A stretch of 64,000 nt of DNA from Bilabrum cf. latius (Eukaryota): positions 558,001 to 622,000 of the forward strand of contig OZ237747.1 in the NCBI GenBank assembly GCA_965178125.1. The letters are read 5' to 3'. Of the stretch, positions 16,770 to 63,999 are shown in pieces. Positions within the stretch are counted from its first letter, which is position 1; every line of letters starts with the position of its first letter. Under the pieces are notes generated by a model. It worked only from the letters and a program-made list of their open reading frames with translations, made no database searches and was not told the origin of the DNA. A program made the translations under genes and the position numbers.

Positions 16770-17905
16770 ATGGCTGCAGTAGGCGGCAGTGCCGGTCGTG
16801 ATGAATTAATGGGATTTACTGTCAAAGAGCTTGTCACTACGCTGCGAGAAGAGGAGAAAGCAGCTAGTGGGGCAGCCGCTCGAGGCAAGAGCGTAACCAA
16901 GCCGCACAACTTGCCTCATAGGGAGACTCGGTCTCTTTTTGACAGGACCAAGGTGAGGCCTGATATAATTCTCTTGCTACTGCAATCTTTCTGTGTTGTG
17001 ACTGCGTCACAGATTTTGTCGTTGCAGCAATAATTGATCCGATTTCAAGCTTTTGGTCGTACCATTCACTTTCACAGGTGTTGTCTTCAGCCGTGAGGCC
17101 TGCTGGGGGTCATCCGCATTCTAGAATGGATGATGATGGCAGCATGGAGGTAAATGCGTTCCGACCAGGTCTGGCGACCATGCGCCCTGACCCTGGCAGG
17201 TTTCTGCTGCGCGGGGGAGGCACCGGAGGAATGGCAACTACGGCCTTGAAAGCTCGAGCCCTGAAGGCTGACAGCGTGCCTTTGAAGCCCCCACCGAAGG
17301 CAGGTGCCATGAAGATTCGGCCGAATCCACCGAACACTTCGTTGAGGTTTTACTACGAGAGGGGCGACTTGCCGTGCAAGATCAGCCAGAAGGGCGTGAA
17401 AAACAAGCTTGCCTGGAAGCAGCCGATCGATACTTTGGATTTTAATTTCTGGCTCCCTGTGTTTATGGACGGCGTCCGCGAGGAGGAGGACCCTTACCAG
17501 TTCATTGCCATGGACGGCGTCACGCAGCTGCTCGACAACGGAGGCTCGAAGATCCTCCCCACCCTCCCAGTGCTGATCATGCCCATCAAGCAGGCGCTCA
17601 ACACGAGGAGGCCGATCGTCGTATGCAGGATGATGAAGGTCCTGCAGAGGCTGGTCACCGCGGATGCGCACACGAAGCGACCAACGATCGGCCGGGCGCT
17701 TGTGCCGTACTACCGCCAGATCCTGCCCGTGTTCAACCTGCTCGCCCTCAAGAACAAGAACCTTGGCGATGGAATTGATTATGCGCAGCGGAAGGGCGAG
17801 AACCCTGGGGATCTGGTGAGCCAGACGCTCGAGCTGTTCGAGGAGTTTGGTGGGGAGGAGGCACTGGTCAACATCCGGTACCTCGTGCCATGCTATCCCA
17901 TCTAA
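16770..17905 (+). CDS. PACRG: Parkin co-regulated (PACRG) family axonemal protein
   Basis: Intron 16953-17077. Motifs LRFYYERGDLP, LDFNFWLPVFMDGVREEEDPYQFIA, GRALVPYYRQILPVFNL, NLGDGIDY, GGEEALVNIRYLVPCY. Ends in TAA 17903-17905. Confidence 0.93.
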
Positions 17906-18148
17906 GGCACGCACGCGAAGTCGCAACGCTGGAGGAGCTGTGGCTAGGAGGCATTGCTCCGTGCCTATTTCCTCCGCATGGTTTGGCGCATTCCGTGTGG
18001 CCTCGCGGCCCCCGGCGTGCCGTACCCGCGGCTTGGTTGATTTGAATACTCGATTCACGCGACAACTAGCCGTGCCCGGGATATCTGGATTAATCTAGTA
18101 CGCGCAAACACTTAATGTAACCCTCAAGCCGGGCATCATCGGGATAGA

Positions 18149-21100
18149 TCAAGACAATGTGGCACCATCGAGCGATGGCACCGTGCACACCCCGGCCGCC
18201 GTCCGCAGAGGCTTGCCAGCGTAGCAAGCCTGCTTGTCTCCATCCGTGGACAGCTCCGGCACCACATCCTTCCAAGGGTTCTTCTTCTTCTGAGGGTTGA
18301 TCTTCTCGTCGGGATCCGCTTCCGAGCCGTCGATGACAACCCGCTCTCCGATGGCAGAGCCCGCGGGCGGGTCCACGAACTCGACTCTGTCGCCCTTGTT
18401 GGCGCAGAGGACCATCCCCTTGGACGTGAAGTCGCCCATCTTGCGGTCCTTCAGGTTGGCCACCACCACGATCTTCCTGCCTTGCAGCTCCTCAAGCTTG
18501 TAGTGCTCCCTGAGGCCAGAGGCGATCGTCCGTGGCGCGCCCTCGCCTACGTCCACCTCCTCGCAGAAGAGCCTGTCCTTGTCGGGGTGCTCCCACACCT
18601 TGGTGATCTGGCCCACCTTGAGGAGCAGGCGGCTGAAGGCAGGCACGTCGGACCTGTCGGCACCCTTCTTCTTCTTGCCTCCGCCGGCAGCGCCCCCACC
18701 GGCGGCAGCGCCCTTACCCTTGCCCTTGCCCTTTGCCTTCTTCGCCTTGCCCTTGGAGGCATCCGAAGCAGATACTGCGCCACCCGCTGCCGCCTCGGAC
18801 CCGCCAAACCTGGACCTCCACTCCTCCACCTACTCGGGCTGGATCTGCGTGAAGATGGGCCGCGGCTTCATGCCAAGCTTGTGCCCCTCCGGGATACACA
18901 CCTCGAACTTGTCTGGAATGTCCATGTGGGGCAAGCCGAGCTGGTGGCACACCCGGTCCGTGAATCCAGGCATGTAAGGCTCGAAGATGGCGGCCACGAG
19001 GCGCACCAGGGATACAGAGTATGCGATTGCAGTCGCCGACTCGTCCATCTTGCCCTGCTTCTTCTGCGATGCACGGTTGGGATACTTTGGGGTAATACGG
19101 GGAGCAGTGGCGGCAGCACATGGCAAAGCTCAGCGGACACGTTGATACACCAATACCAACGGAAGAAGCACAGCAAGAGCAATGGTCTCAGACACTTCCA
19201 AGGAATAGGATGAATATCGTCATAGATGCGTTCGCCTGGCGGGGCAATACGCTCCGTGCGAGATATATCGTCACCGACCGAAAACACACAACACTAGTGG
19301 GAACCTTGCCACAATGCTGCTGCTCTGCCCGCTGGCAGAGCGCTGCAAGCAGCAAAAAACCGACACAACAAGCCAGCAAACCGGCACAGCAAGCAAACCG
19401 ATACAAGCAAAAGTCACACTCACGAGGTCCCAGGGCGCCTTGTCCTACAGGTACGTGTTGCCTTCCCCGGAGACGAGGAGCGCGAGGCCGAGGGCGTGCC
19501 TGAGTTTCTGCTTGCCGACGTACTCGTTGTATTCTGCCAGCAGCTGGTTCACCCTGGTCTCAAGCGCCGCCTCCCTGTCCCCGGGCGCCGCCTTGATGCC
19601 GGGCACGGCCCCCTCGAACTGGGTGTACGACAGGTTGAGCGCCCTGTTGACGAAGTTGCCGAGGTTCTTAAGCAGCACGTTGTTGACGTTGTCGGCGAAG
19701 TCGCTCCAGCTGAACTCAGTGTCGCTGTTCTCAGGCCGCTGGGAAAGGAGATAGAACCTCCACACCTCGGAGGGGATGCCGGTCTCCTTGGCAGTGTCGC
19801 CAAAGACTCCCACGCCCTTGCTCTTGCTGAACCTGCCGGACTCGTACTGCAGGTACTCGGTGACCGAGAGGTCGCCCACCAGGGTCCATTTCTTCTCCGT
19901 GGCAATCAGGGAGCCAGGGAACACAACCGAGTGGAAGGGCACGTTGTCCTTGCCCATGAACTGCACGAGCCTCACATGGTCGGGGTTCTGCCACCAGGCC
20001 TTCCACGCCTCCGCGTCGAGGCCCCTGTCCTGCAGGTAGCACGAGGTCATCGAGATGTACCCGATGGGCGCGTCGAACCACACGTAGAACACCTTTTCGC
20101 TGAACTTTTCCATGGGGACTGGAGTGCCCCACTTGAGGTCTCGCGTGATGGGCCGGGGCTGCAGGCCGGCTTTGAGCCAGTTCTGCGTGATGGACACGGC
20201 GTTGCTCGTCCATCGGCCTGACTCGAAGCACTTGTTCAGCCACGCACGAAGCCGCTCGTCCTGCTTGGGCAGGTCCAGATACATGTGCTCTGTGTCCCTC
20301 ACTTCCAGCTTGTGCGCCTTGTCCACCATGCACCTGGGAGACTTGAGGTCGGTCGCGTTCAGCAGCGCGTCGCAGCTGGGGCACTGGTCCCCTCTCGCGT
20401 CCTCGTGCCCGCAGTTGGGGCAGATGCCCTCCACAAGGCGGTCCGAGAGGAACTTGTCGCAGCCCGTGCAGAACACCTGCTGGCTGCTCTTCTCCAGCAA
20501 GTTGCCCGCTTTAAGGCAGTCGGTGAAGATTTCCTGTCCAATGTCTGTCTGTGGCCAGCCCTTGCTGTCCTTGGGGGTAGCGTGGCTCGTGCGGCCGAAG
20601 TAGTCGAACCGGATGTCAAACCAATCGTAGATTGCCTTGTGCTTTGCATGGTACTTGTCGCACACCTGCAGGGAATGCACACACGAAATAACATAAATTG
20701 AATCTTACTGCATGAACTATCTGGAAAACCCAGCAGCAGATGGCAACGGCCTGATGCCAAGCGCAATTGCGGTTAGCTTACCTCTCGAGTGGTCAAACCC
20801 TCCTCCCTAGCTTTCGTCTCCGTTGCTGTCCCGTACTCGTCAGTACCGCAGATATATAGCGCATTTAGGCCGCGCTGGCGGCACCACCTAGCGTAAACAT
20901 CGGCTGACAGGACACATCCAATTAGGTTGCCAAGGTGTGGGACATTGTTGACGTATGGCAAGGCACTTGTGATAAGAATGTTATCACGTTCCTCAGCTGG
21001 CAGTACAGGTTCGCTTGGCTGCGATTGATGAACAGGATAAAATCAAGCTCGGATTGCAATGCGCTAATAGATCAGCCAAGCAGGGGGAGACAGGTGCGTA

Positions 21101-21560
21101 CAGCCACAGCATCTTACCAAGTCACTTCGACGCAATCTAGGGGTCTCTTCGACTGCTGCTACCCTAAACTTCTTTTTGCCAACCTTAGCATCTGCTACGG
21201 CTGGTGCAGCTACCGGGCTCGCCCCTGCTCCAGAAGCGGGCGGCCCTTTCTTCTTGCCTCCCTGTGCCTTGGGCTTGCTTGCTTTCGTACCAAATTGAGC
21301 TTCAATCCGCGCCGTTGGGTCCTTCAAAACCTGCAAACACAATAAATAAAATCAAAATGTGGGCCGTATCGCCGCAAATACACTAGTTGGGCTGCGATTT
21401 ACTTTTCTTGCAGCTTGGCAAGGAATACTCTGCTCACCTTTGAGAGTCCATTTCTAAGCAGTTGCAATCGCAGTCTAGTTGCGGTGTAGCTAGATAAAAA
21501 TCTATCCATTCCTCGCCTCGCTTGTGTTCGAAGAGATCCTGAAATGTGCTTTCTTAGCAT
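18149..21560 (-). CDS. MARS1: Methionyl-tRNA synthetase with a C-terminal EMAP-II-like tRNA-binding domain
   Basis: [26 protein letters not shown], Zn knuckles, [34 protein letters not shown]. Introns 21331-21437, 21019-21117, 20666-20781 and 19064-19423. In-frame TAG at 19445 and 18830; TGA stop. Start is 21560 or 21509. Confidence 0.95.
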
Positions 21561-21783
21561 AGGTTCTGCCCTTGGCGGCAGTGAACTTGAAATACGCAAA
21601 TGGCACCTTACCACAAAAATGGCTGCCGGGACTTTCGTCCGAGGCGAAGATCAACTAATCGTATCCGTTTTATTCCTTTCATCAATCAATACCATAGCTG
21701 TATGACCCCTGCATGCACTAGAGGTGCCAAGCAAGCAAGCGCTAAACGTTCACCTCGTCACGCACAGCACGCTCACCAGTGGC

Positions 21784-23318
21784 TCACCACTCGAACTTGT
21801 GGACGGTCGTGTGCGAGTACACCTGACCGGGCCTCAGCACGGTGGACGGGAACTCGGGCCGGTTCGGGCTGTCGGGGTAGTGCTGGGTCTCCAGGCACAC
21901 GCCGGCCCACTGCACGGGCTCTAGCCAGTTGCCGGTGTAGACCTGCACGCCTGGCTCGGTGGTGTCGACGTGCATCTGCCTGCCGGACTTGGGGTGCCCC
22001 AGGGTGGCGATGAAAGCCGGGTGCCCGCCCACGTGCCTAGCCGCTACTTCCGGTTTGTCGCTCCTGACGAAGCAGTGGTCCAGGCCGTTCTTGCCCCCGC
22101 CTTCGCCGCCGGCCTTGCCCAGGAGCTCCTCACTCAGGTGCACCCCATCCGCACTCATGGCAGACTCGGCAGGGGCGGGCGCGCTGGCTCCCTCTCCGCC
22201 GGAATCGCCGCCACTAGCGGCCGCTGCAGCCACAGCAGCCGTGTGGAAGTCCATGGTGGGGTGCCCATCCACAGAGACGTACTTGCCCGTTGGGATCTGC
22301 GTGTCGTCCACCTCCAAGAAGGCCTCGCAGCCCGTCTTGAGGGTATGTCCGCACACCGTCTCCTCCTTCCCGTCCCCACTCAGGTTCCAGTACGTGTGAT
22401 TCGTCAGGTTCACGAACGTCGGCTTGCTGGTCCGCGCCTCGTACGTCCACCCGAGGTGGTTCATGTCGTTGAGCCACACCCGGCACGTTGCCTCCAGCTC
22501 GCCGGGGTAGCCCTGGTCGCCATCAGGAGAGGTGAGCGAGAACTTGACCTGCTTGATGCCGTCCTTCTCCACGATCTCGCCCTCCCAGCGCCGCTGGTCG
22601 AAGCCGTCGTCGCCCCCGTGCAGGTGGTTCGGGCCGTTGTTCGTGGCCAGCTCCAGCTCCTCGCCGTCCAGCTCGCACTTCCCCTTGCATATCCTGTTTC
22701 CATACCGCCCTACTGTCATGCCCTTGTACGTGCCTTTAGCAGCGCTTACGACCGAGTCCAGCGAAGAACGGTCGTGCACGGTGATTTCCTCCGCTGGCCC
22801 GTCCGCGCTGGGGCAGCGAACGGAAATGATGCACACGCCAAGCTCCAGAACAGTTGCTGACAATCCTTTGGAGTTCCTGCGAGAAGGATGGAGGGAAGTA
22901 TGAGTGTATGTAGCGCGTTACTTCGGTGCGATGGCAGAATTTGGTGCGTGGGTCTGGCAATTGGCCCGACATCAGTCGGTTGTTCCTGCTCGCAGTTGCG
23001 ATGCCGGAAGAGGGGTGGCCGTCGGCGCTTACGATAATGTAAATGCGTGGATGTCCTCTGTTTTTCCATCAGCAGTCTCTCTGGAACCAAATACAGATTT
23101 CTGCAATATATTGAAGCACAAGACTACTTTCGCATGGGATCAACGAGCAGCTGCCGACCTCAACAATCGCGACGCGGAAACTACACGTAGCATCACAATC
23201 CATCTGTTCCGGTGTATCTCACCGAAACTCCAGCCTTAGTGGCTAAAGACCTCTTTCCTATTGCGCTACTTCCTGATGCTGCCGCCATTCTCAAGAAACG
23301 GGAGGTCGATCGCAGCAT
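21784..23318 (-). CDS. GALM: Aldose 1-epimerase (galactose mutarotase) copy 1, with a putative mitochondrial presequence
   Basis: N-terminus MLRSTSRFLRMAAASGSSAIGKRSLAT; introns 23101-23222 and 22877-23032. Motifs GRYGNRI, NHLHGG, GDQGYPG, NLTNHTYWNL, GLDHCF, CLETQHYPDSPN. TGA stop. Confidence 0.93.
22312..22880. repeat. Inverted repeat arm, near-identical to the reverse complement of 24171-24739; a second block about 21750-22090 pairs with about 25078-25418
   Basis: Direct comparison of the two GALM copies. Identity extends about 34 nt into the 3' UTR. Confidence 0.9.
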
Positions 23319-23787: not shown

Positions 23788-25384
23788 ATGGCGTCAGTGT
23801 AGCTCAGTACCTCTAGTGGAGCCATGGGTTCAGACACTGACATCAAGGTATGCAGACACTGCGTTGCAGTTGATGGAAGCGCAGTACACGTGAATTAATT
23901 ATGATAATGTTTCAACTTAGGTGTTGGCTGATGCTGCAGGCTAGGGTGCTTCACGATCAATATGTCCATTACGCGCAGAAATTCGTATTTGGCACCCGTG
24001 AAGCTGGTAGCGCAAGCAAAGACGCAAAGAAGGAGACTATCCATGCTTTTTTGCTATCGTAAGTTCACAGAGTTTTGGGTTGTCGTGGGGTCTTGATTTC
24101 CTGGCGCCTCGCGTATCTTAGAGTGACAAAGTGGTAGCTCTACTTTTTGTGGGTAGGATCTCCAATGTGCGCAGGAACTCCAAAGGATTGTCAGCAACTG
24201 TTCTGGAGCTTGGCGTGTGCATCATTTCCGTTCGCTGCCCCAGCGCGGACGGGCCAGCGGAGGAAATCACCGTGCACGACCGTTCTTCGCTGGACTCGGT
24301 CGTAAGCGCTGCTAAAGGCACGTACAAGGGCATGACGATCGGAAGGTTTGCGAACCGCATATGCAAGGGGGAGTGCGAGCTGGACGGCGAGGAGCTGGAG
24401 CTGGCCACGAACAACGGCCCGAACCACCTGCACGGGGGCGACGACGGCTTCGACCAGCGGCGCTGGGAGGGCGAGATCGTGGAGAAGGACGGCATCAAGC
24501 AGGTCAAGTTCTCGCTCACCTCTCCTGATGGCGACCAAGGCTACCCCGGCGAGCTGGAGGCAACGTGTCGGGTGTGGCTCAACGACATGAACCACCTCGG
24601 GTGGACGTACGAGGCGCGGACCAGCAAGCCGACGTTCGTGAACCTGACGAATCACACGTACTGGAACCTGAGCGGGGACGGGAAGGAGGAGACGGTGTGC
24701 GGACATACCCTCAAGACGGGCTGCGAGGCCTTCTTGGAGCAGGATGACACGTGCATTCCCATAGGGGAGACAGTTGGGCTTCGTGCGCACCCGCTGCTTG
24801 GGGGATGCTATCAGGGCCAACCAAGACAAGAAAGCGCAGCTGCTACGGATAGCATAGCTACAGCCGGGGGTGAAAGGGCAGATGATAGAGCAATGGAGGC
24901 TGTGGGTAACAGCAAAGTGATCACAGAATCAGCTGGTAGTGCTAGCGATGCAGCAGGTGGTGGTGCACCGACAGATGACCTTGATGGTGATGGTGATGAT
25001 GGTGATGGTGAGTTTGGCGGGGGGCTCATGCTCTCCGCGGAGCTTCTCACCAAGATCGGCGATAAGAGCGGAGGCAGGAACGGCCTGAACCACTGCTTCG
25101 TCAGGAGCGACAAACCGGAAGTAGCGGCTAGGCACGTGGGCGGGCACCCGGCTTTCATCGCCACCCTGGGGCACCCCAAGTCCGGCAGGCAGATGCACGT
25201 CGACACCACCGAGCCAGGCGTGCAGGTCTACACTGGCAACTGGCTAGAGCCCGTGCAGTGGGCCGGCGTGTGCCTGGAGACCCAGCACTACCCCGACAGC
25301 CCGAACCGGCCCGATTTTCCCTCCACCGTGCTGATGCCCGGTCAGGTGTACTCGCACACGACCGTCCACAAGTTCGAGTGGTGA
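23788..25384 (+). CDS. GALM: Aldose 1-epimerase copy 2, lacking a presequence
   Basis: N-terminus MASV*LSTSSGAMGSDTDIK (TAG at 23800; alternative ATG at 23824). Introns 23848-23978 and 24059-24174 are at the same positions as in copy 1. Same motifs except GLNHCF. TGA stop. Confidence 0.92.
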
Positions 25385-25595
25385 GCCACTGGTGAGCGTG
25401 CTGTGCGTGACGAGGTGAGCGGGCGCTAAACGTGCGCTTGCATGCTTTGCCTACAGTTCAGTTAGTGCGCAACAGTAATTAACTCCAAGATAGATTCTGT
25501 GTGCCCCGAACACATTGAGTGGCGCTATATCCTGGATACGGCAGTGAACCGCGAGTGTGGAGCAGAGTTGCATGTGCAATGTGATGTCAACCCAG

Positions 25596-27748: not shown

Positions 27749-28062
27749 ACCAACGTCGGAATGCTGGCTTCGGAACGGTCGGAGTAGTGTTATCGTGCAG
27801 TGCAGCCAGAAGAAGCCGACACAAAACTTCATACGCCGGCGGTGTAGTGCAAAGTGGTCGTGGGGTGTGCGTGGTTGTGTTGCGCATTCGGCATAGCGGT
27901 GTAATGGCTGCAATGACGTCCAAGCAAATTGACTTGCGCAGCTGGCAGCAGCAGCTTGCAGTCAGAAGCATCACACGTATACACTCCCTGATAGTTCCAC
28001 TGTACCGGGCATACTATCGACTTGTGACAACGCATGGGAACCAGGCAGGACCGTCCTCATCC

Positions 28063-31000
28063 TTACTACGGGCACTGCATGCTGTAGGATGTGCGGTCAG
28101 GACACATGGGATGAAAGCTACCACTGGCAGGCCCTGCTCCTCCCCCTGGCACTCCCGCCCCTTCATCCGTGCATGTCTAGTTGACCACCTGCGCGAGCCG
28201 CGCGACCGCTAGTCGGTTATCAAGGTGACAGGCCAGCGAGAGTTCACTGCTCGTTTCGGCAGCGTCCTCGATTACCAGGAGGTAGGAGTCAACCCCTGGC
28301 ACGGGGGCCAGGAAATACGACCCCCGGAAGCACGTGGTCCTCACAGTTCCTGCCACCACCCCGCCAGCGGCTTGGATAGCAGTCGGTAGAAACTCAAGAG
28401 ATCGGACCTGCTGCACGCATCCGAACGTGTTGTCGAATGGATCAAAGTCACCGCGCGTGCGAGCAAACGTATCGGCTTCTGCTGCAGTCTACGTGATTCC
28501 ATCCAGCGTCACCGGGACTCTGTCTTGATCACGAGTCACGCTGCAGCTGCCCTGGTAGTCAATGGAATCGACCCGCCTCGCGTACCCGTGGCGCAAGAGG
28601 TCCAGCATCACTGGACCCGCCCTTTCGCCTAGACTCACGCTGGAGTAGTCTGCCTCAGCGGCGGCTTTAAAGTCTACAAACCCCGGGTCCAGCTGCAGCA
28701 GCCCAGCACTGTCCACCAGGAAACACCTAGTCTCACAGAAGAAATCCCCGTCCAGCCATCCCTCGGGGCAATCGTAGGTTTGGTAGCAACCCCTGTCCCC
28801 AATGGCATGACTGTCGGCCCACTTGAACATGGTCTGGGAGAGCATCGTTTGGAAGTCCTTGTAGATGAAATCGATCCCAGCTACGCCTTCCAGCTCTGTG
28901 GAAGAGCAGTGGCCTCCGTAGCACCTGCCGGACACGCACTATGCGCCAGAGGTGCAGGCGATTAGAGAGCCATTGTCTCTCCCCGCAAATACTGGGGATG
29001 CCAGCGTGCTGATTCTGTGGCCGGATGCGGCGTCCAGATACGGGGTAGTGAGTCCCAGCCTCCCTTGGCTGGCCAGTCCACGGCGGTACCAGGGCCTCGC
29101 CATTGGATCAAACGCATGCGGCATGCGGGTGCCGGGATAGATCCGGAACACTCCCTGAACTGTCGAAGTGTGCCGCCAAATGACATCACTCAAAGTACCG
29201 TCCAGTGTTGCCGCTGCGATCCACGCAGGCTCAACTGCATGGGTCAGAGCCACGTCAGGGCGCACCTGCTTCTACGTGCGAAAGTCAGCACTATCGGTGT
29301 CCACGCTGGCGCCAGGAACCTCTGCAGATGCGTTTGCCAAGCTGCATCCTGCATTTGGGTACTGGCTAGTAGTGCCTGCGTAGCTTGCTCGCATAAAGGC
29401 ATCGATGTAGGTGAAAGAACGGTCTGCAGTCACGTCCACAATGTACTCCTCTGCCTTACAGAAGGCAGAAGGTGCCAGCTTGTACGCGGAGTGCCGAGTG
29501 CTTATCTACATACTGGGGTAGAGCCTGTCGTCCCTGCCCTTAGTCTCAATGTGCAAATCATCGATTCGTGCCTGTGGAATGCGGCTGGAAGGATCTTGGT
29601 ACTTGTCGAGTCGGTGGTAAAACTCATCACCAGCTTGTGCCACCCTCCCGGCGTTGCCGTCCCCTGTGCCCACTGCCACGCGAAACTGCCCGTCTTCAGG
29701 GCCAAACACGTACGCGAAGGAAAAATCAGTGCCTGGAATGTTGCTGAAATAGTAAGTCTAGTCGCGTTCAACCACCGTGTTTCCATCCAGCTTGTCGCCC
29801 TTCGGAAGCCTCCTCTTCATGTTCGGGATGGTAACTTGGCCCGTGCTGCCAGTGAGCATGGGTGCTCTGACCTGCCGCATGAAGGCGTCGAACTGAACGG
29901 TGCCTGGTGTTGCCTCTAGCTATGCCACGTCGGGGTAGATCGGATCCGACCTAAGCTGGCTAGAGGGCCGCAGCAGAGGATGGACAATCGCGCGGCCTTC
30001 GCCGTTGATCAAGAAGGCATAGACCGTGCCCCACTTCTGACTCATGAGAGTGTTTTCCGCCTCTTGCAAGGTGGCATCAATGCCCACGATGCCCTGAAAC
30101 TCCTTTCCGATGTATACGGGCGCAGAGGCAGTCATGATGAGGCCAAGCCCGGAGGTGTCGATGTACGGGCGGCTCAGAATCGCCGTGCCACCTTCGATCG
30201 ATTCGCGCAGGTAGTCGAAGTACGGCCTCAACGCATCAAACACCGTGTTTCCAGACCACAGAGGAAGGACTTGTCCATGCGTGTCGCAAGCACCATCAGA
30301 AATCACGGTAGGTCCGCTGGGCCCCTGCAGATTGATAGCGAAGACGCGATGGCCCATCGATCCCACCTATCGCGCCACGTCTCTCATCTACTCGGCATCG
30401 AGGCCGGCATTCTTGCTTGAGTAGTAGTCGATGCACACCTCGTGCTCGTAGCACGTTTGGTTACCATCTGCGTTAGTGTAGCAAGTCTGCTCCATGTGGC
30501 AGTCTGTGTGCGAGTACGCCTGCACGCTGTTCGTATCGAGGTTGTCCGAATCGGTGATGAGCACCACGAGCGTGTCGCAAGCTCGAGTGCTGCCAAGGAG
30601 CAGCCTTTGAGTGAGATCGATTGCCTATGTCCAGTCCTGCTTCCCGTCGAAGATGCTTGGATTCAGCTTGTCCAACACTTGCTTCTTGTTCGCAGGAGTA
30701 GCAAACTGCACCGTATCTCCGCCGCACCCCAGTGCTCTAGTGCGCTTGGACCTGAATGAGATCTGCGACGACGTGCACACAGGACGGCCACATGATGCAT
30801 AGTGATAGGAGCCTTTCATGCACACCACATTAAATCTATCTTGCGGCGTGAGTGAATCAATGACAGCACGAGCTGCATCGAGCGCGGGTCCGCTCCTCCG
30901 GCTCATGCGCATGCTTGTGGTGCAGTCCATTAGAATTACCACATCTTTCTGCGACGAAGATGAACCGACGTACCACGGTCTTGTCAGCGGGTTGTAATCC

Positions 31001-33435
31001 TCCGTGAAACCAAAGTAGTTTCGCGCCCGGCGGCGGCCAGGCATAGACCGGAAAGTCCCCGTTCGGTGTCCCAAGTACGCCCAGCGCACGGCAGGGTCGG
31101 CCATGTGTGGGGCGTAAAGCTCTTCATCAAGGCTATTTGTTGCCCACGCAGCAGCCAAAGCCCCGGTCGAGGGGTTTGTGGCCGCCTGACTATTGGGGTC
31201 ACGATCAGCAAAGCTGGGGATCTTGACGGTCGAGTGGTCGAAGCTCACCCGCCGCTGATAGCGAGCGTCGAACCGCTCCCCGGGTACCTCTAGAACGATG
31301 TCGGTGTCGTAGAACGAAGGCCTTGCTACCATATTTTCCCGGGCAGTCGCCTACAACTTTGTGGCAACATCGGCTGCAAGCGACTGTACTAGCTAGATCT
31401 TGCCGTGAAAGAAGGTGGCAAGGCTGTCACGCACGGACTCGACCAGCTGGGTGCCGTTCCGCAGCTCAGTGGTGTAATTGGCAGCATCGTATATTGCCTA
31501 CACTTCGTCACGGCAAAGCTACGTGTCTGCAACAGAGTTCAACTTGTTGCTGATCGCTGATGCCAAATCTCTGGAAAGGGCAGGTGTAAATGACGTGGCA
31601 CTGGCATTACCCATCACACTGCACGCCACGACAGCAGCAATGACCACTGGCAATGCATGCCTCGACCAACCACTCAAACGGAGACCAAATGCACCAGACT
31701 ACGGTTCATAGGCACAGCCAAAGCTGGAAGCGGCAAAGAAGCCTGCGACCAGTATCGCAAAGCCACAGCTGACACTCCGCGCGATCTAGCGCGAGCCATT
31801 GGCGCTAGGCACGTTTCCTGAGAATACCCGGTGGTTAGCTTCCACCCCAAAGCATGTGGCCTTAGCACGCGCTTCTAGATCATTCGTGTTGCCATACCCC
31901 GACAAAGGTGGCTCATCGTGGACAGTGACAGGGGAGAAACCCATGGCCTGGCACAATGCGGTGCCGTTGCCGAACTGCGCTGTCACTGTGTCTTCCAGCG
32001 GGCCTGGCACCACAGCATTCTCGCACGCGCGATACATAACGTTGCAGTACCCCTCGCACACGCGCACCTGCTGCTGCTCGACCTCATGCCCAAGGAAGAA
32101 ATCGGCCTGCCTGGAGGAGCAAGGGGAGCAGGTTAGGTAGCTAAACGCAGCGGCGCAGTCCCGACCTGCTTGCAGCAGGCGCGGCGGGGCCTCGGTCATG
32201 GCCACCACTTCCGGGTTAGTGCAGCATGTGTTGTCTTGGAACAATCCACAGCCGCTGAGCTGGTAATTTGGAGCGGACACCCTGCCTCCACCGATGTAAG
32301 GACACGCGCGGCTCGACAGCTACCGACCTCGTGCGTCTGCTGCTGCGGCGAGCTACCCAACCTGCAGTGTTTGCTCCTGCACGGCCCCAACCGGCGGTTC
32401 GTACGCCTCCAATTTGCACTAGCCGTGATATGTGTGTGAGCTAGCTGAGACTTGAGGGGTACAGAGTGCGAGAAACACAACTGTAATTCCAGCGGCAACG
32501 GTAGCTTGGGGGCCTCCGGCGGAGTGTGGCGCTGACGACGACTGGCCCAGAAAGGCCCCCCTAGCAGCTGAGGCAAGCAGTCCTGCAGTGACAGCTGCAA
32601 AACCAGCGACTACACAGAATGAAGAACGCTGGTGCGTCGCGCGATGTGCGGATGAGTCGTCACGATGGTGTGGGAACAGCTCGTCGCCGGGCCTGACACC
32701 AAAGCACCCATACCGCTCGCCGGGGGTGCCCTCAGGATCGCCACCGGCTCCGGATGAGTCATCCACCACGGTGTATCCCTGTAGAGTACACATCAAGGAA
32801 CCAGACCCGAAAGAATCGCGCAGCGTCTTTCCCTTCCAGTCCGCGTTGCCGCAGACGTCAAACAGTGTATCGCACATCGACTTGCAGACCGCGACCTGCC
32901 TTCTCCTGAGGTCGTAAAAGTACTGGCTGTCTGGAGAACAAGGCCAGCAGTACATGTAATTGAGAGCTCGGAGGCAGTCAGCGCTTCTAGTCTTCAGCTG
33001 CGCGCGAAGATACAGACATGGCAGTGGCGATGATCGATCCGGACATACCGATACTACACGCGAAACAGTGATCGCCCGACGGATTATATTTGTCATCAGG
33101 GAATTCACTCAGTTGGTAAGGGGTGCGTTCAGTTTCATCTTGAGGTGGTAGTATGATTTCATCGGAGTGAAGGTGCGAGAATGGGCCGGAACTTCGCGGC
33201 TCACACTCACCGGTGACGAGCCGCTAGGCAAAAAGACTTGCATTTCAGTAGAACTACAGCAAGCGCTCGCGGAGTACCATTGTGAACAATTGCCTGACGC
33301 GAGCGGGGCCGGGGCTCTGTTGTTGAAGAATGGGCAAAACTAATCGTCCGCACTCTCTTCGTAGCTCAGCCAAAAGCCTTCAGATCGCGTTAAGAGTAGT
33401 TGAACAATAAGATGATACGCAGCACCGTGCCACAT
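28063..33435 (-). CDS. Secretory protein with two folate-receptor-like Cys-rich domains plus VWA and Cache domains (CACHD1/alpha2-delta-like), about 1719 aa
   Basis: Signal peptide MWHGAAYHLIVQLLLTRSEG and intron 32998-33210. One frame with 21 TAG codons. Motifs YNPLTRPWY, KDVVILMDCTTSM, SRPYIDTSGLGLIMTASAPV, FDPMARPWY, TTPYLDAASG. Ends TAG-TAA at 28068-28063. Confidence 0.85.
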
Positions 33436-47998: not shown

Positions 47999-50119
47999 TC
48001 ATACCTAGGCAACCGGTCTAGCTTCGGAGCTGGCAGCAGCCGGGCTGGCAGACAACTCGCTTGCATTCGCACCAGTCAAGCCAGCCACTATGCCATCTCC
48101 GCTCGTCTGTCTGCGTCCTGAGACACTCTTGGAACCAACCTGCTATTCAGAGCTACCAACTTGCCGTTGATCTTGCTCGACCTCCTCGTCGTCGTGCGTC
48201 TCCTCGAGCCACAGACGGTACAAGTAGCCCGCGCTTAGGATGGTGCAAACCATCAGACCCATGTTCGCGTTGAAGAACTGGCCATCATTCTCTTTCAGGA
48301 CCACCGCAGTGATCGGTGTGACCACCACAGCACAAAGCGCGCCGATGAGAAACAATAGACCAGCCAGCACACCAAAGCGAGACGGGCCGTACACGGCCAT
48401 CACGCGGGCCAGAATGATGGCAAAGATCGATTCCTGCTGCAGCGTGTACATCAAGAATGTCACGGGCTGAGCCTCCACCACGGGGACGAGGGTAAACGCC
48501 GAGTGCACGATCCCGAGGGCCACCACGAGCCCCATGCCCCAGAAGGCACCCAGACGGTCGTACGCCATTCCGGCCACTGCCGCCATAAACGCGCCGAGGG
48601 GCGCGATCCACCCTAGCAGCGCCAACCAGTCCTCCACCTCCGACTCCAGCCTGCTTAACTCAGCCTCAGCCGCCGTCTGTTGCGACTCACCGCTCCCTGC
48701 ATTGCCTGTCTCGCCCTCGCATCCCCCCGCTGCATCTGCCGCCACGTCCGCCCTCTCGCCGTCCACGTCCACCTCCCTCACCCCGAGCATGTCGCCCAGC
48801 TGCAACGCTGCCGTGCCAAGGTAAAACACAAGACGGAAGTAGGTCACAACGAAGAACAAGAGCAGGAACAGCGCTTGCGGCTGCGATGCCAGCGTGGCGT
48901 ATTCGAGGATACCTGCATTGAAACTCTTCCAGCAGGATGGGGGTTGGGACCCTGCTTCGCCAGATGCATCTACATCTGTTACGGCTGTTCCATCCGCGGC
49001 ATAACTTTTTTGCTATCCGCCTTCTTCCTCTTTGCTATCCTCTTTCGATTCTGAGTCTCCAGCAGCACCGCCCTGTCCCTGTCCCTGTCCCTGTCTCTGT
49101 CCCTGTCCCTGTTCGATCAGAACTACCTGCGAATCTCCCCGCGCGGGGGGCTCCTCCTTGTCCTACCCACCGTCGATATCTACTTGCTTTGCAACTGAAA
49201 CGCCCTGTGAAGTGCCATCGACACCACTATCGAAGTCGCACTTCCTGCCACCTTGTGGTATGGGCGTGCTGGGCAAAATCAGTCCAAAGGCTGCGAACAG
49301 CACCGCGAGCACCGCCACCGCAGCGTAAAGCGCCTGAAGAGTCGCCCCTGAGACGCTGCTGTTGACTGCAGAGAGGAGTATGGGGGTCAAAGCACTTCCA
49401 CCCATGCAGCCGCTGAGAATGCCCATGATCAAGCCTTCGTTGCCGGGAAAGAGGTTTGCTGTTGTGGCGTAGCTGAGTTGCAGACCGCCCCCCGCGAACG
49501 AGAGAACAGCAAACCCGACGACGAATAGGTCAGCAGATGCTTCTGTTGCACTATCGTCGTCCTTAAAGAGCGATACCATGAGTGCACCGGCCGCAATGAT
49601 GGCATTGGCAAGCACATTGAGCACACGAGGTCCGAACACGTCATGAATGGCTCCGAGCGGCATGGTGGATATCATCAGCGCCACAGTCGCCGTGGTAAAA
49701 GCTGAGCTAATGTGAATAGCACGAGCATCGCACTCTAGCGAATCTCCACAGCACAGTCCCGAGTAGACACCGTCATTTTCGAGTATCAACTGCAAAAAAA
49801 ACAGCATGAGCACACTCGGTGGGCTGTAGGGTACCAAAGAATATTATCAAAGATGCAACTGGGGATTTCGACATACTTATTGTACTACATAATGATGAAA
49901 ACCGACACTGCCACAGGAATGCAGGTTGAAATACGTGGCATAGGCCCTAAGCATGCAGTTTCCGTACACCCTCACTTGAATCCCTGACCAGCCAAGAATC
50001 TGCCCACCCAGAAGGAGCACGTTCAGGCTGCCTGATATAACATATACATATCTACTAACTAACGGGGACAGGTCTGGAATCGCCATGCTGGAGTTTGCCA
50101 GGTCAGCCGGAGACGTCAT
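47999..50119 (-). CDS. MFS transporter, SLC43 (LAT3/LAT4)-like
   Basis: LLLGGQILGWSGIQ|LILENDGVYSGLC (intron 49790-49975), PLGAIHDVFGPR, VYGPSRFGVLAGL; about 12 TM segments. TAG at 49163, 49013, 48143 and 48005; TGA 48001-47999. Confidence 0.85.
49071..49112. repeat. (CCCTGT)7 imperfect hexamer repeat encoding QG repeats in the transporter loop
   Basis: Read directly; one unit is ctctgt. Confidence 0.85.
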
Positions 50120-51642: not shown

Positions 51643-51786
51643 TATGTTTGCTGGTGATCCATGTTTATTGGCGCGTGCTATGGTACTCTGTACAGGTTCA
51701 ATCGGATGCGGACATCCTCCGGTTTGTGTTTGCTCCTCCTTCTCACTTGCAACGACTCCACGCCAACACTTTACACAACGAGCGCA

Positions 51787-53418
51787 ATGAGGCTCGCGCT
51801 GCAAGACGGATGCATTCTATGCACTGTGTTGGCTGGTCTTGCTTTGGCATCCACACCACCACCGTATGCCATCCCGTCTGATGGGCTGAACGCCTCGCGA
51901 AGCTTGTTCGTCGTGCAAGAGGCCAGTATTCCGACGGACGATGACAGGCTATTTGTCCAGTCCTTGCAGGGCCTACATGCTCGTGTGTCACCGAAGCTGT
52001 ACAGGAACATATCGAACAATGGAGCAGAGCTATGGCTACAGGAGATGGAAACGCTGTTCGGGCTGCAGTTGCGTAGTGCGCCGGGATCTGCCAAAGATAT
52101 CCTCAATCAGGGTGGAGAGCTCTCGGCACCTATCAAAGGGTATGTACTTGCAACAAACTCAAGTCATCCAGGGCCTGCAGTGCTGGCTGCAGCAGGGATG
52201 GAGGGAGCCGTCGTTGCAACCCCGGCAACTAGAGCATTGCTGGACTCGAGTGGTTTCACCATGCTGCTTGATTGCTCAACAATGACATATAGCTAGGTGC
52301 TAGACAGATTAAACGTTTCCAGCGATTCTCACCCCGAGGGGCCGTACGCAAGGCGTGTCGCGGCTCTCCAGGACGACAGCAAGAGCGCGGGATCTCTGAC
52401 CGATCTCGTGATCGCTTCTCGTGCGATCCAATGGTGGGACACCGACATGGGATCGCAGCTGTCCACCAGGGTGCTGCATTCACTGCACGATGGATCTGCA
52501 GTATTCGGCTGGGGCGCGGACGAGGGCAAGACTGTCGCCGCGATCTCGCCCGGCGGCAGCTTCGTGCACGCCTCTGACTACAGCTCCAACCTCGCCACTT
52601 TGAGCGCCTACAGGCTGCCTCCGATGACCAAGGCGCAGTCAAAGGATCCTGATCTGGCATTACAGGCCGGGAAAAAGCACACTGTCTGTTTCCTGATGAC
52701 AGATGGAGACAACTTGCAGTGGCTGCAGAACGATTTCGCCACCAACCCGCTGTGGTGGGCCAGCCCCCAGAGAGGCTCCTTCCCTCTCGGGTGGACGCTC
52801 TCGCCCGCCACCTACTACCTAGCACCTGCTCTACTGCACTACCTGCGGCGAACCGCCACCCCGAACGACTCCTTTGTCGCTGCTCCGAGCGGGGCAGGGT
52901 ACTCCAACCCGGACGTAATGGCGCAAGGCCCGGGCGGCGCTCACGCTCTGGATACCTTCTCCGATTTGACAGCGACCTATGCTGCAAACAGCGGCCTGGG
53001 GATTGTCAACGTGATCGGGCAGAACTACGACGCAGGTGCAGCGGCAGAGCTCCTCGATTCAGCTGACCTGGACGCGTTGTTCTGGTACAACTACCGCAGC
53101 TATAGCGACCTCCAGGGCAAGATCGACTTTGTGAAGACTCCGTCGGGCGATACCAAGCCGGTAATCGGTGGCAGATTCCAGCTCTGGACGGGCACGTTCA
53201 AGAACACAACCAGCTTGCTCACTGCCCTGGAATCGATGCCTGCTGACCCCTCCTCAGAAGATGGGTACTCACTCGTGCCCGTGCACGTGTGGTCGGATTC
53301 GGTGGGGCATGCCGCCGAAGTGGCCCAGGCACTCATGCAGCAGAGCAATAGGTTTGATGTTGTTCTACCTGGTGAGTTTGTGCGACGGATCCGCGCGAAC
53401 TTAGGGCCGGGCCGCTGA
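51787..53418 (+). CDS. Secreted GxGYxYP-family putative glycoside hydrolase, about 543 aa
   Basis: Signal peptide; VFGWGADE, VHASDYSSNLATLS, FLMTDGDNLQW, RGSFPLGWTLSP, SGAGYSNP, GYSLVPVHVWS. TAG at 52294 joins ORFs 51661 and 52297; TGA stop. Confidence 0.85.
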
Positions 53419-57069: not shown

Positions 57070-60000
57070 TCACTGAGGCATAACCCCAGCGCCGGCCCAC
57101 AGCTGAATCCCTGGTACCACCGCCTTGTCCGACGATGACGCCCACTCTGCAGCACCGACCGCCGTCCCCTTGACCGTAACCTCTGCAGCTCCCCCGCCCT
57201 CCCACTCAATCCGAACCGACCCTCGCATGTGCCTCGCAGAGTCACTTTGTGTTCGCGCATAGATCCAACCCGACCTGGACGCACCCGGCGCGATCGGCCC
57301 GCGGCCCAGCTCCACCCACAGGCCCGACCCGTCCGCTCGAGGCACCCTGCAGCTCCTCGCTGCGGCCCTCACCCTGAGCGGCCTCTTCGAGTGGTTCCGC
57401 ACCTGCACCCGCCTGCGCGCCAGCCCAGGAGCAGGCACCGATCCAAGGACCACCTGCCTGGGCCGTACCTCCACGACAGTGCCGCCTAACGGACCACCGC
57501 CGAGACTAGTTGCCCCTGCCCCAGTCCCAGCTCCAGCTCCAGCTCCACGGCGCTGCAGGGATCTCGCAGCTGTCAGACCCCCACCTGCAGCCCTCACAGC
57601 AGCATCCGCATCGCTCGAGGAAGTTGGAGCCACAGGGCCACCATCAGCAGTGGTCTGGCCGTATAGCGCCGCTTCCGGCTCCTCATCGCTGTCGGCCGGG
57701 AGCTGGCCCACGACGTCGCCCAGTGGCTCTGTGGGGCCGTACCGAGCAGGATCCGCGCTCTGAATGTCACGTGTTCCCTGGTCGTCACCTCCTTCGCGCA
57801 TGATTGCGGGGCGCTGCGCGGGTCGCGGCGGTCGGTCGCTAGCCACTGAAGCGAGAAGAGCTCCACTCCGACCCATGGGTGGCTGTCCGCCCCGGCGGTG
57901 CGCCTCGTATCTCTTCCTTGCCGCTCCTGTAGAGGACAGAACATGGCTGGAGGCAGCTGCTTGCGGGCTCACCACCCCGATGTGGTGCCTGCTAGAGGCA
58001 AGCTCATTGAGTGTCGGGTCACCGTTGGCTGCCTCTCGTGCGTCCTGTAGGGATGGATGGCCAGCACCCGCCAGGCCGGTTCTCGATCTCTCGTACGGAG
58101 TCTGTGCTGTGCTGCTGACAGGCGTGTTCACCCCACTGCTGCCTCGCTGTACTGCCTGCAGACCTGCCAGCTCTGCTCTCCGGAGCGTTTCCGCCCTGCT
58201 GCGGGACCCGCGGTCGGCCCGCCGGCCCGATGCAGAAGACGCCATGCGATCCGCAAGGGTGCCAGTCGCACCCACGGAGCCGTCTCGCTCAGCTGTCGTC
58301 GCCGATTCGGCCCTCGACACGAGCCTATTGATGTCCTCGGGAGCAGCGGTGGCCATGGGAGGCACTGCGAAATCTTCGTAGCCAGAGCGCATGCCAGGTG
58401 CATCGCCAACACCCCCGCCGTACTGACTCGAGCTTGCGGAATCATGCGACGCGTGACTGCTTCCCTGGAGTTGGTCGCTGTGGCTCGACTATCGCCGAGA
58501 TCCACCGTGCGCGTCACGAGGGGCTGTCTCCGTGTGAAGGGCGCCGGCTAGGTCTTGCTCCACCGTCGAAGGGGTACGCGGCCGCGGGATGGCCCCGTCG
58601 TCGTACCTGCCGGCCCTGCGGCCATCTCCATCTGAACCGGCAACACCTGGCTCTACCCACTCCTTCTCATGCATCTCTTCGGCGTCGCTTCCTGGTGAAA
58701 CGCTCGCATCCTGAGCTCGCGCAACAGGGATCCGACTAGCCGTGTTGCCGCTACCGTGCTACGTGCTAGTGGAGCCCGCTGCCGATCGTCTTGGTCCTGC
58801 AGATGTGCTAGACTAGCCCAAGACGCGAAGAGGGGCTGCCACTGCCGTCGTCTGCTCGGCGTTAGGGTGCCTAGCAGCTTTCTCCTCGGCCCTTCGCATG
58901 GCCTCTGCTCGGGTCTAGCTCTCCTGAATCCCAAGCAGTGCACCGAGTGACATGCCACCGCCCTTGTCCTCCTCGCCCGCCTGCACCTCGATTCGCACCT
59001 TTTCCTCGAACGGAAGGTCTTCCTGATCCTGCAGCTGCTCGAGCTGCTCGTCCAGTTTGCTCTCCGGGCCCTAGATACCCTTGCGGGCAAGTCTGCGGCG
59101 CTCTCGTTCGAGTTGACTGGCTTTCCTGCGACGCTCCTTTGCAGCTTGCTTGCGAATGGCGTCATCCTGCGCTTGAAGCTTGCCAACCTGCTTCCGCAGC
59201 TTGCGGCCGAATCGCGCCAGCCGCCGCCGCTGTCGTTCCACCCGCTTGGCTGCCGCAATCGCCAACGCCTGGCTAGCAGGGTCAGCATCGAGCTCTTGCT
59301 TGCTCTCGCTGTGCTGCTGCTCCTCCTCCTCTGTGACCTTGAGTTGTCTCAGTGCCTGCATGGTGGCTTCGCTCCTCTGCCTGCGCCAGTCTGCTAGTCT
59401 CTAGGCTGCAACGCTCAGCCCAATGATGGCCTCAAGCGATGCACCGGCCGAGTGCTGAGACACCGCAGTCACCACGGTCACCGTAGAAGAGGCAGAGAGA
59501 GGCTGAAGCCTGGAGGCAGCGTTCGAGTTGTGCAGCGGACAGCTGTCGGCCAGCGGCGGGGCCAAGCCCACTGGCCTTGGGCTGATTCGCTCGCACGGCC
59601 AGTCTCCATCAAGGTCATCCGCAGGCGGTGCCTCCCCAGCGAAGCCAAAGGAAGGCCTCCCCGCTCCAGCCCCGGCTCTCGTGGCCACTGCCTTTGCTGC
59701 AGTGAGCGCAAGGTCCGCCGCCCCGTCCTCGTTGCTTGATGCCTGCTGGCCCGCCCGAATGGTGCCAGCCAAGTCGGCGCCTCCAGCATTCAAGTGGCCC
59801 GTCACGCTGGGCAGTACACCGATGCCGCGCATCACCACTGGGTCCGGGCGACCAGCTGCGGCCAACACACGCCGCCACTTGCGCCGCTGTGCCTCCAGTC
59901 CGGGCTGTGCATTGGCTCCAAAGACCTCCCTCTTCGTTCCTACGCTTGGCCTCGTGGCAATCCTCGGCCGCAGCCAGCCGCCGCCAGGTGCCAGCAGCAG

Positions 60001-63000: not shown

Positions 63001-63999
63001 GGCCTCGCCGTCGCCGGGCCTGAACAGCGTCAGCTATGTCCTGTTTTCACTGTCCCTGACACCGGGGCTTGTGCCGCCCTGGCTGTTTCTGCGACGGAAT
63101 CCGAGCACACCGAAGGGGGCGCTCATGGTTACATTGCGGCCGATGAGCCCGCCTTGCCTGCCCTCGGTGCATTCGATCTGCACGCTTCCTGCAGCGTGCA
63201 TCCGCCACTGCTGCTGCTCCAAGCCCTAGATTGCCTCGGATGGCAGAGATGACACCAGCAAGCAGGCCGGCGACGGATTTGATGCCTCGGGCGTCGCGGG
63301 TCCACGACTGCGAGCACTCTCGCTTGGCTCACCGCTGGCTACTGAAGGTCGCACGCGCTGCCACACAAGAGCCTCGAGAACACGCTTGTACTGCTCAGCA
63401 GCAGCTGCCAGCCTCTTCTCAAGCTCTGGGTCAGTCTTCTCTGCAACCGCCTTGCCCTTTCCTTTGCCTTTCCCCTTTCCTTTAGGTTTGTCAGCCTCTG
63501 CCCTTTCCTGCAGCTCCGCAGCACCGGGCAGCCCGGCAGCTTCATTTGCATCCTCCTTGGCCTTAGCAGCAGCCTCCAGCAATGCATCCACTCCCTCTAT
63601 GGATCCAAGCTGCTACAGAAATACTCTGTCTTGCTCTAACGTCTCTTGCGCAAACGCGCTCGCGGATGTAGCCATGCCTCGAAGGAGAACAGCGGAACTG
63701 CCGGGACCGCCGCGCCTTTCCACGCGGGCGCGTGGCACCGGCTTGTTCGCTACCACAATCGCGCTGCCGGTCAGCGGCTCGCGACCCACATCGATTCGCC
63801 ATCCCTGCGATCTCAGCGCCGCGATCTCCGACAGTACCCCCCTGCGGGTCAGCCTACGTCGGTGGGACCGGAGGCACAGAGGCACCTGAAAGGCAGGCGC
63901 ATCCTTCGCAGCCTTGGCCTGGTGCGCTACCTGCCGCGCAGCAGCTGCGTTGGCGTCGAGTGGGATGATGCCCCACGGCCGAATCCTCCGGGGCCCCAT
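57070..63999 (-). CDS. 5'-truncated protein of more than 2300 aa, SPAG17/PF6-like flagellar central-pair protein (tentative) with a C-terminal PapD/ASH-like domain
   Basis: One frame from the window edge to TGA 57070 with 12 TAG (63613, 63226, 63034, 62506, 62473, 60868, 59401, 59071, 58915, 58813, 58759, 58489). Beta-hairpin DG/NG repeats; C-terminal VRPRQVVLGSV...VQVRNHS...GPIAPGAS. Confidence 0.65.

Follow-up and report, generated by a model that had tools for sequence, protein, structure and literature searches.

In a 64,000-nucleotide (nt) stretch of DNA from Bilabrum cf. latius (NCBI GenBank assembly GCA_965178125.1, contig OZ237747.1, positions 558,001 to 622,000 of the forward strand; in the following called the window), a gene encoding methionyl-tRNA synthetase (MetRS) carries two TAG codons within its reading frame. 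From the analysis of this gene and of the others in the window we conclude, with a probability of roughly 0.85, that the DNA belongs to a nuclear genome in which TAG (UAG) is an ordinary glutamine (Gln) codon and TAA and TGA are stops. UAG is a sense codon in mature mRNAs, and there is genome-wide tolerance of TAG, but not of TAA or TGA, in frame. Judged by comparison with homologs, the TAG positions behave like Gln, and the MetRS TAGs would then be two of many TAG Gln codons in the genome.

The MetRS gene lies on the minus strand (18149-21509) and consists, in a gene model built from spliced contigs, of five exons, all on this strand. Exon 1 (21438..21509) contains the inferred start codon (ATG 21507-21509), the transcript contigs extending only to ~21538, and its joint to exon 2 (21330/21438) is found in contigs of the runs X5, X6 and X7. 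Exon 2 (21118..21330), bounded by the joints 21018/21118 and 21330/21438, translates into a Lys-rich N-terminal extension. According to translation and joints, exon 3 (20782..21018) holds the start of the catalytic domain with an HLGN (HIGH-type) motif. The catalytic core, the zinc knuckles, the KFSKS motif and the start of the anticodon-binding domain follow in exon 4 (19424..20665), which includes the first TAG. Exon 5 (18149..19063), with the second TAG, encodes the rest of the anticodon-binding domain, a Lys/Gly-rich linker and a C-terminal EMAP-II-like tRNA-binding domain; its frame ends with the stop codon TGA (18149-18151), and the transcript ends at ~18096, ~53 nt past this TGA. All introns are of the GT..AG type. 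The 360 nt of intron 4 (19064..19423) are skipped in X5, X6 and X7 contigs and retained in X1; the further introns lie at 20666-20781 (116 nt), 21019-21117 (99 nt) and 21331-21437 (107 nt), likewise on the minus strand.

Joined, the exons form a coding sequence of 892 codons from ATG to TGA that is free of stops except for TAG at codons 581 and 666. The first of them (19445..19447, minus strand, exon 4) stands within the motif GNTYL-TAG-DKAPW, and the minus strand reads GGCAACACGTACCTG TAG GACAAGGCGCCCTGG around it (TAG at 19447-19445). The second (18830..18832, minus strand, exon 5) is embedded in CAGCCCGAG TAG GTGGAGGAGTGG (TAG at 18832-18830). In both cases the sequence and its read-through translation agree with the positions, strand and peptides given in an initial annotation of this DNA, which had been made from the letters alone.

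Transcript evidence was taken from assembled contigs of X5 and X7, which belong to one study, and of X6, which belongs to another; the contigs of a fourth run, X1, are DNA-like. The RNA nature of X5-X7 was deduced solely from their splice joints, and we regard these contigs as spliced transcripts because such joints arise only from splicing. In X5, X6 and X7 contigs the four GT..AG introns are removed and both TAG-bearing exons are kept. Exon 4 is covered by record 12 (X5), record 15 (X6) and record 20 (X7), and exon 5 by record 10 (X5), record 15 (X6) and record 20 (X7), with 0 other letters in either exon. The X1 contigs are colinear with the window across all four MetRS introns, and no variant letters or indels were found at MetRS in the contigs of any of the four runs (X1, X5, X6, X7). 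Because all runs are identical and the introns lie elsewhere, the TAGs are not spliced out, edited or allelic in these data. The initial annotation had named the splicing out of the TAGs in cDNA as a refutation; both are retained in the spliced contigs of X5, X6 and X7, so its reading is not refuted on this point. One X5 contig of low depth (14.6, compared with 334-381 for the spliced contigs) covers 19034-19453 and crosses intron 4, representing either unspliced precursor or contaminating DNA.

The encoded protein is a complete enzyme. HLGN, KFSKS and CxxC...CxxC are present in the translation, which we take to be the HIGH-type, KMSKS-type and zinc-knuckle motifs, respectively. Exon 4 matches human MetRS (5gl7) with an E-value of 2.5e-133, and exon 5 continues the anticodon-binding domain with a match to 5gl7 residues 520-606. 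The C-terminal domain matches AIMP1/EMAP-II chains with E-values from 4e-37 to 2e-36, and PF01588 is recorded in most of the top MetRS homologs. An appended EMAP-II/Trbp111-like C-terminal tRNA-binding domain is typical for MetRS of plants and protists. The N-terminal extension (21118-21509, minus strand) comprises ~95 residues, with a short Arg/Leu-rich start followed by the Lys-rich stretch. We conclude that this is an intact, expressed, spliced, full-length gene for a class I MetRS of the eukaryotic cytosolic type. The conserved Trp of the ...PW motif, which presumably has the role in anticodon recognition known from work on E. coli, stands five codons downstream of the first TAG, and termination at 19445 would remove it, as the initial annotation had pointed out.

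Single nonsense codons in draft genomes are, as a general expectation, usually alleles or errors. It could therefore be argued that the TAGs are not translated as sense at all and reflect a pseudogene or null allele, sequencing errors, RNA editing or introns. We consider this extremely improbable, in view of the identical bases in the contigs of four runs including spliced transcripts, the location of the introns and the lack of variant letters. Furthermore, the MetRS frame is conserved past each TAG, through the anticodon-binding and EMAP-II-like domains, and the wider gene set described below contains 89 in-frame TAGs as opposed to 0 TAA and 0 TGA.

For the amino acid encoded by TAG, we looked at the residues of homologous proteins in the two MetRS columns. 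An exhaustive search with exon 4 yielded 150 MetRS representatives. A MAFFT alignment of 151 sequences was too gappy at both columns and was replaced by pairwise local alignments, in which the window MetRS was entered with X at the TAG positions. A second set consisted of the 120 best full-length homologs found by a word-indexed search; it contains many plants, fungi and animals and is hence redundant. At column 581, aligned in 132 of the 150 representatives, we found Q 90 times, followed by T (13), D (9), S (8), N (4), A (3), H (3) and E (2), while L, Y, W and K were all at 0; with ungapped flanks, Q accounted for 68 of 101. Among the 120 full-length homologs, 118 have Q and one has E, with one unaligned. 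The motif GNTYL-TAG-DKAPW aligns with GNQYIQVNEPW of human MetRS.

The second column gave a different result. At column 666, the 105 aligned of the 150 representatives show E 25, Q 16, K 12, M 7, L 7, R 6, V 6, F 5, D 4 and T 4 besides others, and the 120 homologs E 49, K 24, Q 18, M 11, D 5, R 4, T 4, H 2 and A 1, with two unaligned. Among the 12 sequences nearest to the window in a MetRS tree, four have Q at column 666. Treated as two profile columns, MetRS yields a posterior of ~0.87 for Gln (E 0.035, T 0.034), nearly all of which comes from column 581. Column 581 is a nearly invariant Gln, and column 666 is not a conserved one. The initial annotation had placed both TAGs on conserved Gln residues and had noted that the human sequence has Q at both without gaps. 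The latter is borne out by the alignment, human-type MetRS (P0019) having Q at both columns, ungapped, and the former stands for column 581 and falls for column 666, which is variable with Glu as the commonest residue. The observation is thus partly confirmed: it is real, but half as strong as first stated, one of the two columns being unconserved. As a lesson on method, the inference was borne by one near-invariant column, while at the second the human sequence happens to have Q in a column that is not conserved.

The window has a G+C content of ~59% and holds ~20 genes, with GT..AG introns of 99-360 nt and Ala/Gly/Ser-rich proteins. Read with TGA as the sole stop, it shows very long open reading frames (ORFs) with many TAGs inside. 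Genes supported by Pfam include those for an S9 peptidase, a Folate_rec/Cache (alpha2-delta-like) protein, a TmcB-TPR/PAS protein, a PROPPIN, an AIG1-like protein, an MFS transporter, a GxGYxYP protein, a WD40-repeat protein, whose best matches among solved structures are ARPC1, and a SAM decarboxylase. In 21 gene segments with 16,172 in-frame codons, we counted 89 TAG, 0 TAA and 0 TGA; the zero for TGA is circular as the gene set was picked as TGA-free ORFs, and the zero for TAA is partly so as 5′ ends were trimmed behind upstream TAAs. The absence of TAA from more than 16,000 interior codons is not circular. In the other two frames of the same segments, TAG occurs 127 and 128 times, TAA 49 and 58 times, and TGA 295 and 309 times. 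Of the 21 segments, 15 contain in-frame TAGs, the highest number in a gene being 19. As a practical warning, about two in three of the longer genes here will come out truncated from gene callers set to the standard code.

These counts bear on the possibility that TAG and TAA both encode Gln, as in the UAR=Gln code (NCBI table 6), TAA being merely rare through the GC-rich composition of the genome. Among the stop reassignments of eukaryotes this one is by far the commonest, the two codons usually being altered jointly (PMC5304391, PMC11687900). The G+C content of the window is in line with it, and TAA as a stop is backed by one gene end only. However, the CAA:CAG ratio in the genes examined is 135:453 (CAA making up 23% of CAR codons), so that TAA = Gln would predict ~27 in-frame TAAs beside the 89 TAGs, whereas none was observed (P about 8e-11) in genes whose other frames do contain TAA. 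Moreover, the PACRG gene stops at a TAA where its homologs end. We judge the joint reassignment of both codons unlikely.

The PACRG gene (17126..17905, plus strand) aligns with solved PACRG chains to 5-7 residues from their C-termini; in the window two residues follow and then a TAA (17903-17905), the likely stop. The sample of gene ends supported by homologs is small (n = 6), with TGA at five (MetRS, ARPC1, GxGYxYP and two aldose epimerases), TAA at one (PACRG) and TAG at none. Judged by the counts above and by the PACRG end, TAA acts as a terminator and not as sense, and TGA is retained as a stop. PACRG and MetRS are convergent at 17900-18104. With transcripts ending at ~18059-18104 and ~18096-18098, respectively, the two genes are directly adjacent at their 3′ ends or share a few bases there.

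In the MFS-type gene, a TAG stands two codons before the TGA (48002-48010). In this single case the TAG may be what is left of the ancestral stop, with translation now passing over it and ending at a back-up stop. The same arrangement could be cited for a dual meaning, with TAG read as Gln inside genes and still ending some of them, whether in a context-dependent manner, as in Condylostoma or Blastocrithidia, or through leaky decoding by a near-cognate tRNA-Gln(CUG). Codes with a dual meaning exist, and a tRNA(CUA) was not seen in the 64-kb window. The base after in-frame TAGs is, however, unbiased (A 28%, C 27%, G 31% and T 14% at 90 sites), and this lack of a special context argues against context-dependent read-through. 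Of all Gln codons in the genes examined, ~13% are TAG, with as many as 19 in one gene, a frequency that leaky read-through would be unable to maintain. Together with the absence of TAG from the six homolog-supported gene ends, this leaves a dual meaning with little credibility in our view.

The ORF of the alpha2-delta-like gene, introduced below, ends with CCT TAG TAA GGC TGA (28060-28075). We considered its TAG TAA as an instance of a TAA stop and rejected it. The TAG-TAA overlaps the sequence GTAAGG, a possible splice donor, and the homolog P0272 continues for ~35 residues past the end of the ORF, including a hydrophobic tail; a further downstream exon of this gene is therefore likely. For the same reasons this TAG-TAA does not speak for TAG as a terminator.

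Since some other protists read UAG as Leu or as Ser, a second gene was needed as a test beyond MetRS. The alpha2-delta-like gene (28069..33096, minus strand), with Folate_rec, VWA and Cache domains according to Pfam hits, offered 19 in-frame TAGs for this; a 20th, at the very end of the ORF, was omitted from the query. A collection of 5.8 billion proteins contained one homolog, P0272, with 57% identity, which is itself classed as alpha2-delta/VWA/Folate_rec-like in the protein atlas, without a useful taxon. P0272 has 1628 amino acids without interruption, and relatives such as its source may have kept the standard code. The 19 TAG sites face Q seven times, G three times, K, S and E twice each, and T, L and D once each, and the sole L lies in a poorly aligned stretch with a flank identity of 2/12. 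As controls from the same alignment, CAG- and CAA-encoded Gln residues of the window face Q in 52%, E in 9%, and D, T and K in 7% each, and Leu residues of the window face L in 64%, I in 10%, M in 6%, F in 5% and V in 4%. By this comparison, the TAG sites resemble the fate of Gln and not that of Leu.

We then scored each of the 20 amino acids over 24 sites. The 19 sites of the alpha2-delta-like gene and three single sites read from solved structures (PROPPIN, SAM decarboxylase and GxGYxYP) entered with conditional log-probabilities based on BLOSUM62, and the two MetRS columns with their profile log-frequencies; the score assumes a single meaning at all sites and independence between sites. Gln scored best, with Glu at -10.2, Lys at -13.3 and Ser at -14.1 natural-log units relative to it, and Leu was outside the eight best-scoring amino acids. 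Without the MetRS columns, Gln was still ahead of Glu by 7.0 and of Lys by 7.2 natural-log units. For the TmcB/PAS-like protein (2312 amino acids, 13 TAGs), no homolog was found at E ≤ 0.001 in the length range searched, both TAGs of ARPC1 lie outside the region aligned to solved structures, and a sub-query with the PROPPIN returned only Atg18 chains. A database-free comparison of the mean hydropathy of TAG neighbors with that for each amino acid was too imprecise to tell Gln from Leu.

A reading of TAG as Glu, Lys, Ser or Leu instead of Gln would have precedents in a rhizarian (UAG = Leu), the alga Scotinosphaera (UAG = Ser) and ciliates (UAG = Glu), which are named in PMC5304391 and PMC11687900. 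Glu is also the commonest residue at MetRS column 666, and individual sites in the PROPPIN and SAM decarboxylase genes face Leu and Lys, respectively. On the other hand, column 581 has E in 2 of 132 representatives and neither L nor K, the 19 alpha2-delta-like sites follow the substitution pattern of Gln, and the summed log-likelihoods disfavor all four. We regard another amino acid as very unlikely. The initial annotation had argued from MetRS for Gln rather than Leu, Glu, Tyr, Trp or Pyl (pyrrolysine); this assignment is supported here, but by more evidence than was then at hand.

Several points weigh against the assignment of TAG to Gln with TAA and TGA as stops, in addition to the circular elements in the stop codon counts and the variable column 666. 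The test with 19 sites depends on one homolog. The PROPPIN TAG (43653) stands opposite a Leu in yeast Atg18, where the alignment is weak (domain E-value ~0.03), and the GxGYxYP TAG (52294) faces a Trp of a bacterial homolog in a gappy stretch of low identity; the TAG of the SAM decarboxylase gene faces a Lys of the human enzyme. As a stop, TAA is backed by the single gene end of PACRG. ARAGORN detected no tRNA genes in the 64-kb window, so that the decoding tRNA was not seen there, an Rfam scan of the window gave no matches, and eRF1 was not among the window genes in Pfam scans, which covered the 64-kb window only. The meaning TAG = Gln is deduced from DNA, transcripts and homolog comparison.

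By analogy with Iotanema spirale and other reassigned codes, we suggest that a tRNA-Gln(CUG) would have acquired the anticodon CUA by one mutation and would now decode UAG, and that eRF1 would have lost the efficient recognition of UAG while keeping that of UAA and UGA. In the fornicate I. spirale, UAG encodes Gln, and UAA and UGA are stops (Panek et al. 2017, PMC5304391). There UAA is the stop in 104 of 119 genes, no gene ends in UAG, and the amino acid was deduced from conserved columns and likelihood. For its eRF1, a change in the GTS motif has been reported (PMC9161772). The window shares with I. spirale the reassignment of UAG alone, to Gln, with UAA kept as a stop, and the amino acid was inferred in the same manner. 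In contrast to the mostly UAA-terminated genes of I. spirale, TGA ends nearly every gene seen in the window, at a G+C content of ~59%.

Among ciliates, Protocruzia tuzeti and two phyllopharyngean lineages have reassigned only UAG to Gln (McGowan et al. 2024, PMC11687900). Their code table, with UAG = Gln and UAA as a stop, is the same as that of the window. By comparison with the usual features of ciliate genomes, the window appears unlike ciliate macronuclear DNA in composition and gene structure. The UAR=Gln codes of table 6, found in many ciliates, in Dasycladales, Cladophorales and Trentepohliales, in hexamitids, oxymonads and Amoeboaphelidium, likewise turn a stop into Gln, presumably via a mutated tRNA-Gln anticodon, but in the window TAA is not sense (0 of 16,172 in-frame codons vs. 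~27 expected). The window resembles the rhizarian exLh (UAG = Leu) and Scotinosphaera (UAG = Ser) in that UAG and UAA have different meanings in the nuclear genome of a non-ciliate. It departs from them in the amino acid, Leu and Ser being strongly disfavored in the window. In crAss-like and other gut phages, TAG = Gln ("code 15") is a viral trait linked to the lifecycle, with a phage-borne suppressor tRNA (PMC9523058). These phages share the change from codon to amino acid, but the window represents a eukaryotic nuclear genome with spliceosomal introns.

The code table is thus already documented in a few other eukaryotes, and the window would be a further case. That TAG alone is reassigned and TAA is still a stop goes beyond the initial annotation and is the more interesting point. 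In the literature we found no fitting case beyond Iotanema, ciliates, exLh and Scotinosphaera, most subscription journals and supplements having been outside the scope of this search. To investigate the placement of the organism, we built a FastTree phylogeny of 37 MetRS sequences, without support values, in which the window groups with Cafeteria, Blastocystis and unnamed sequences. The set was without ciliate, fornicate or aphelid sequences, and the tree gives a weak hint at a stramenopile affinity. We tentatively propose, as a possibility to which we give about one chance in three, an independent and undescribed origin of UAG alone = Gln with UAA = stop, outside ciliates and fornicates, in a GC-rich, TGA-terminating lineage. 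The genome and transcriptomes date from 2025, and their producers may well know of the recoding.

If such an origin is true, UAG and UAA would come apart more easily, and in a wider range of genomic settings, than the few known cases suggest. Few nuclear codes split the two codons, and those named in PMC5304391 and PMC11687900 belong to one fornicate, one rhizarian, one green alga and some ciliates. Such codes bear on the discrimination between UAG and UAA by eRF1 and on the capture of a stop codon. A further, GC-rich, TGA-terminating lineage with public DNA and RNA data would be a useful comparison, also for finding the changes in tRNA and eRF1.

The use of TAG is uneven among the genes. It is absent from short, CAA-poor and strongly biased genes (aldose epimerase, GLOD4/thioredoxin-like, DHDPS-like and PACRG) and occurs 1-19 times in longer ones. 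This recalls the rhizarian exLh, in which the reassigned codon is reportedly avoided in highly expressed genes (PMC5304391). An ORF of 2309 codons with 12 TAGs (57073-63999, minus strand) is without a Pfam match, rich in Ala, Gly, Ser and Arg, and runs off the end of the window. The two aldose 1-epimerase genes (21747-22881 and 24170-25421) are arranged head to head as an inverted duplication, with arms of 582 nt at 97% and 383 nt at 95% complementarity and a diverged middle; both copies are without an in-frame TAG in the coding part. The putative glycoside hydrolase of the GxGYxYP type (51661-53415, plus strand), which lies among typical eukaryotic genes, has the bacterial 3sgg as its sole solved relative (E-value 4.5e-34).

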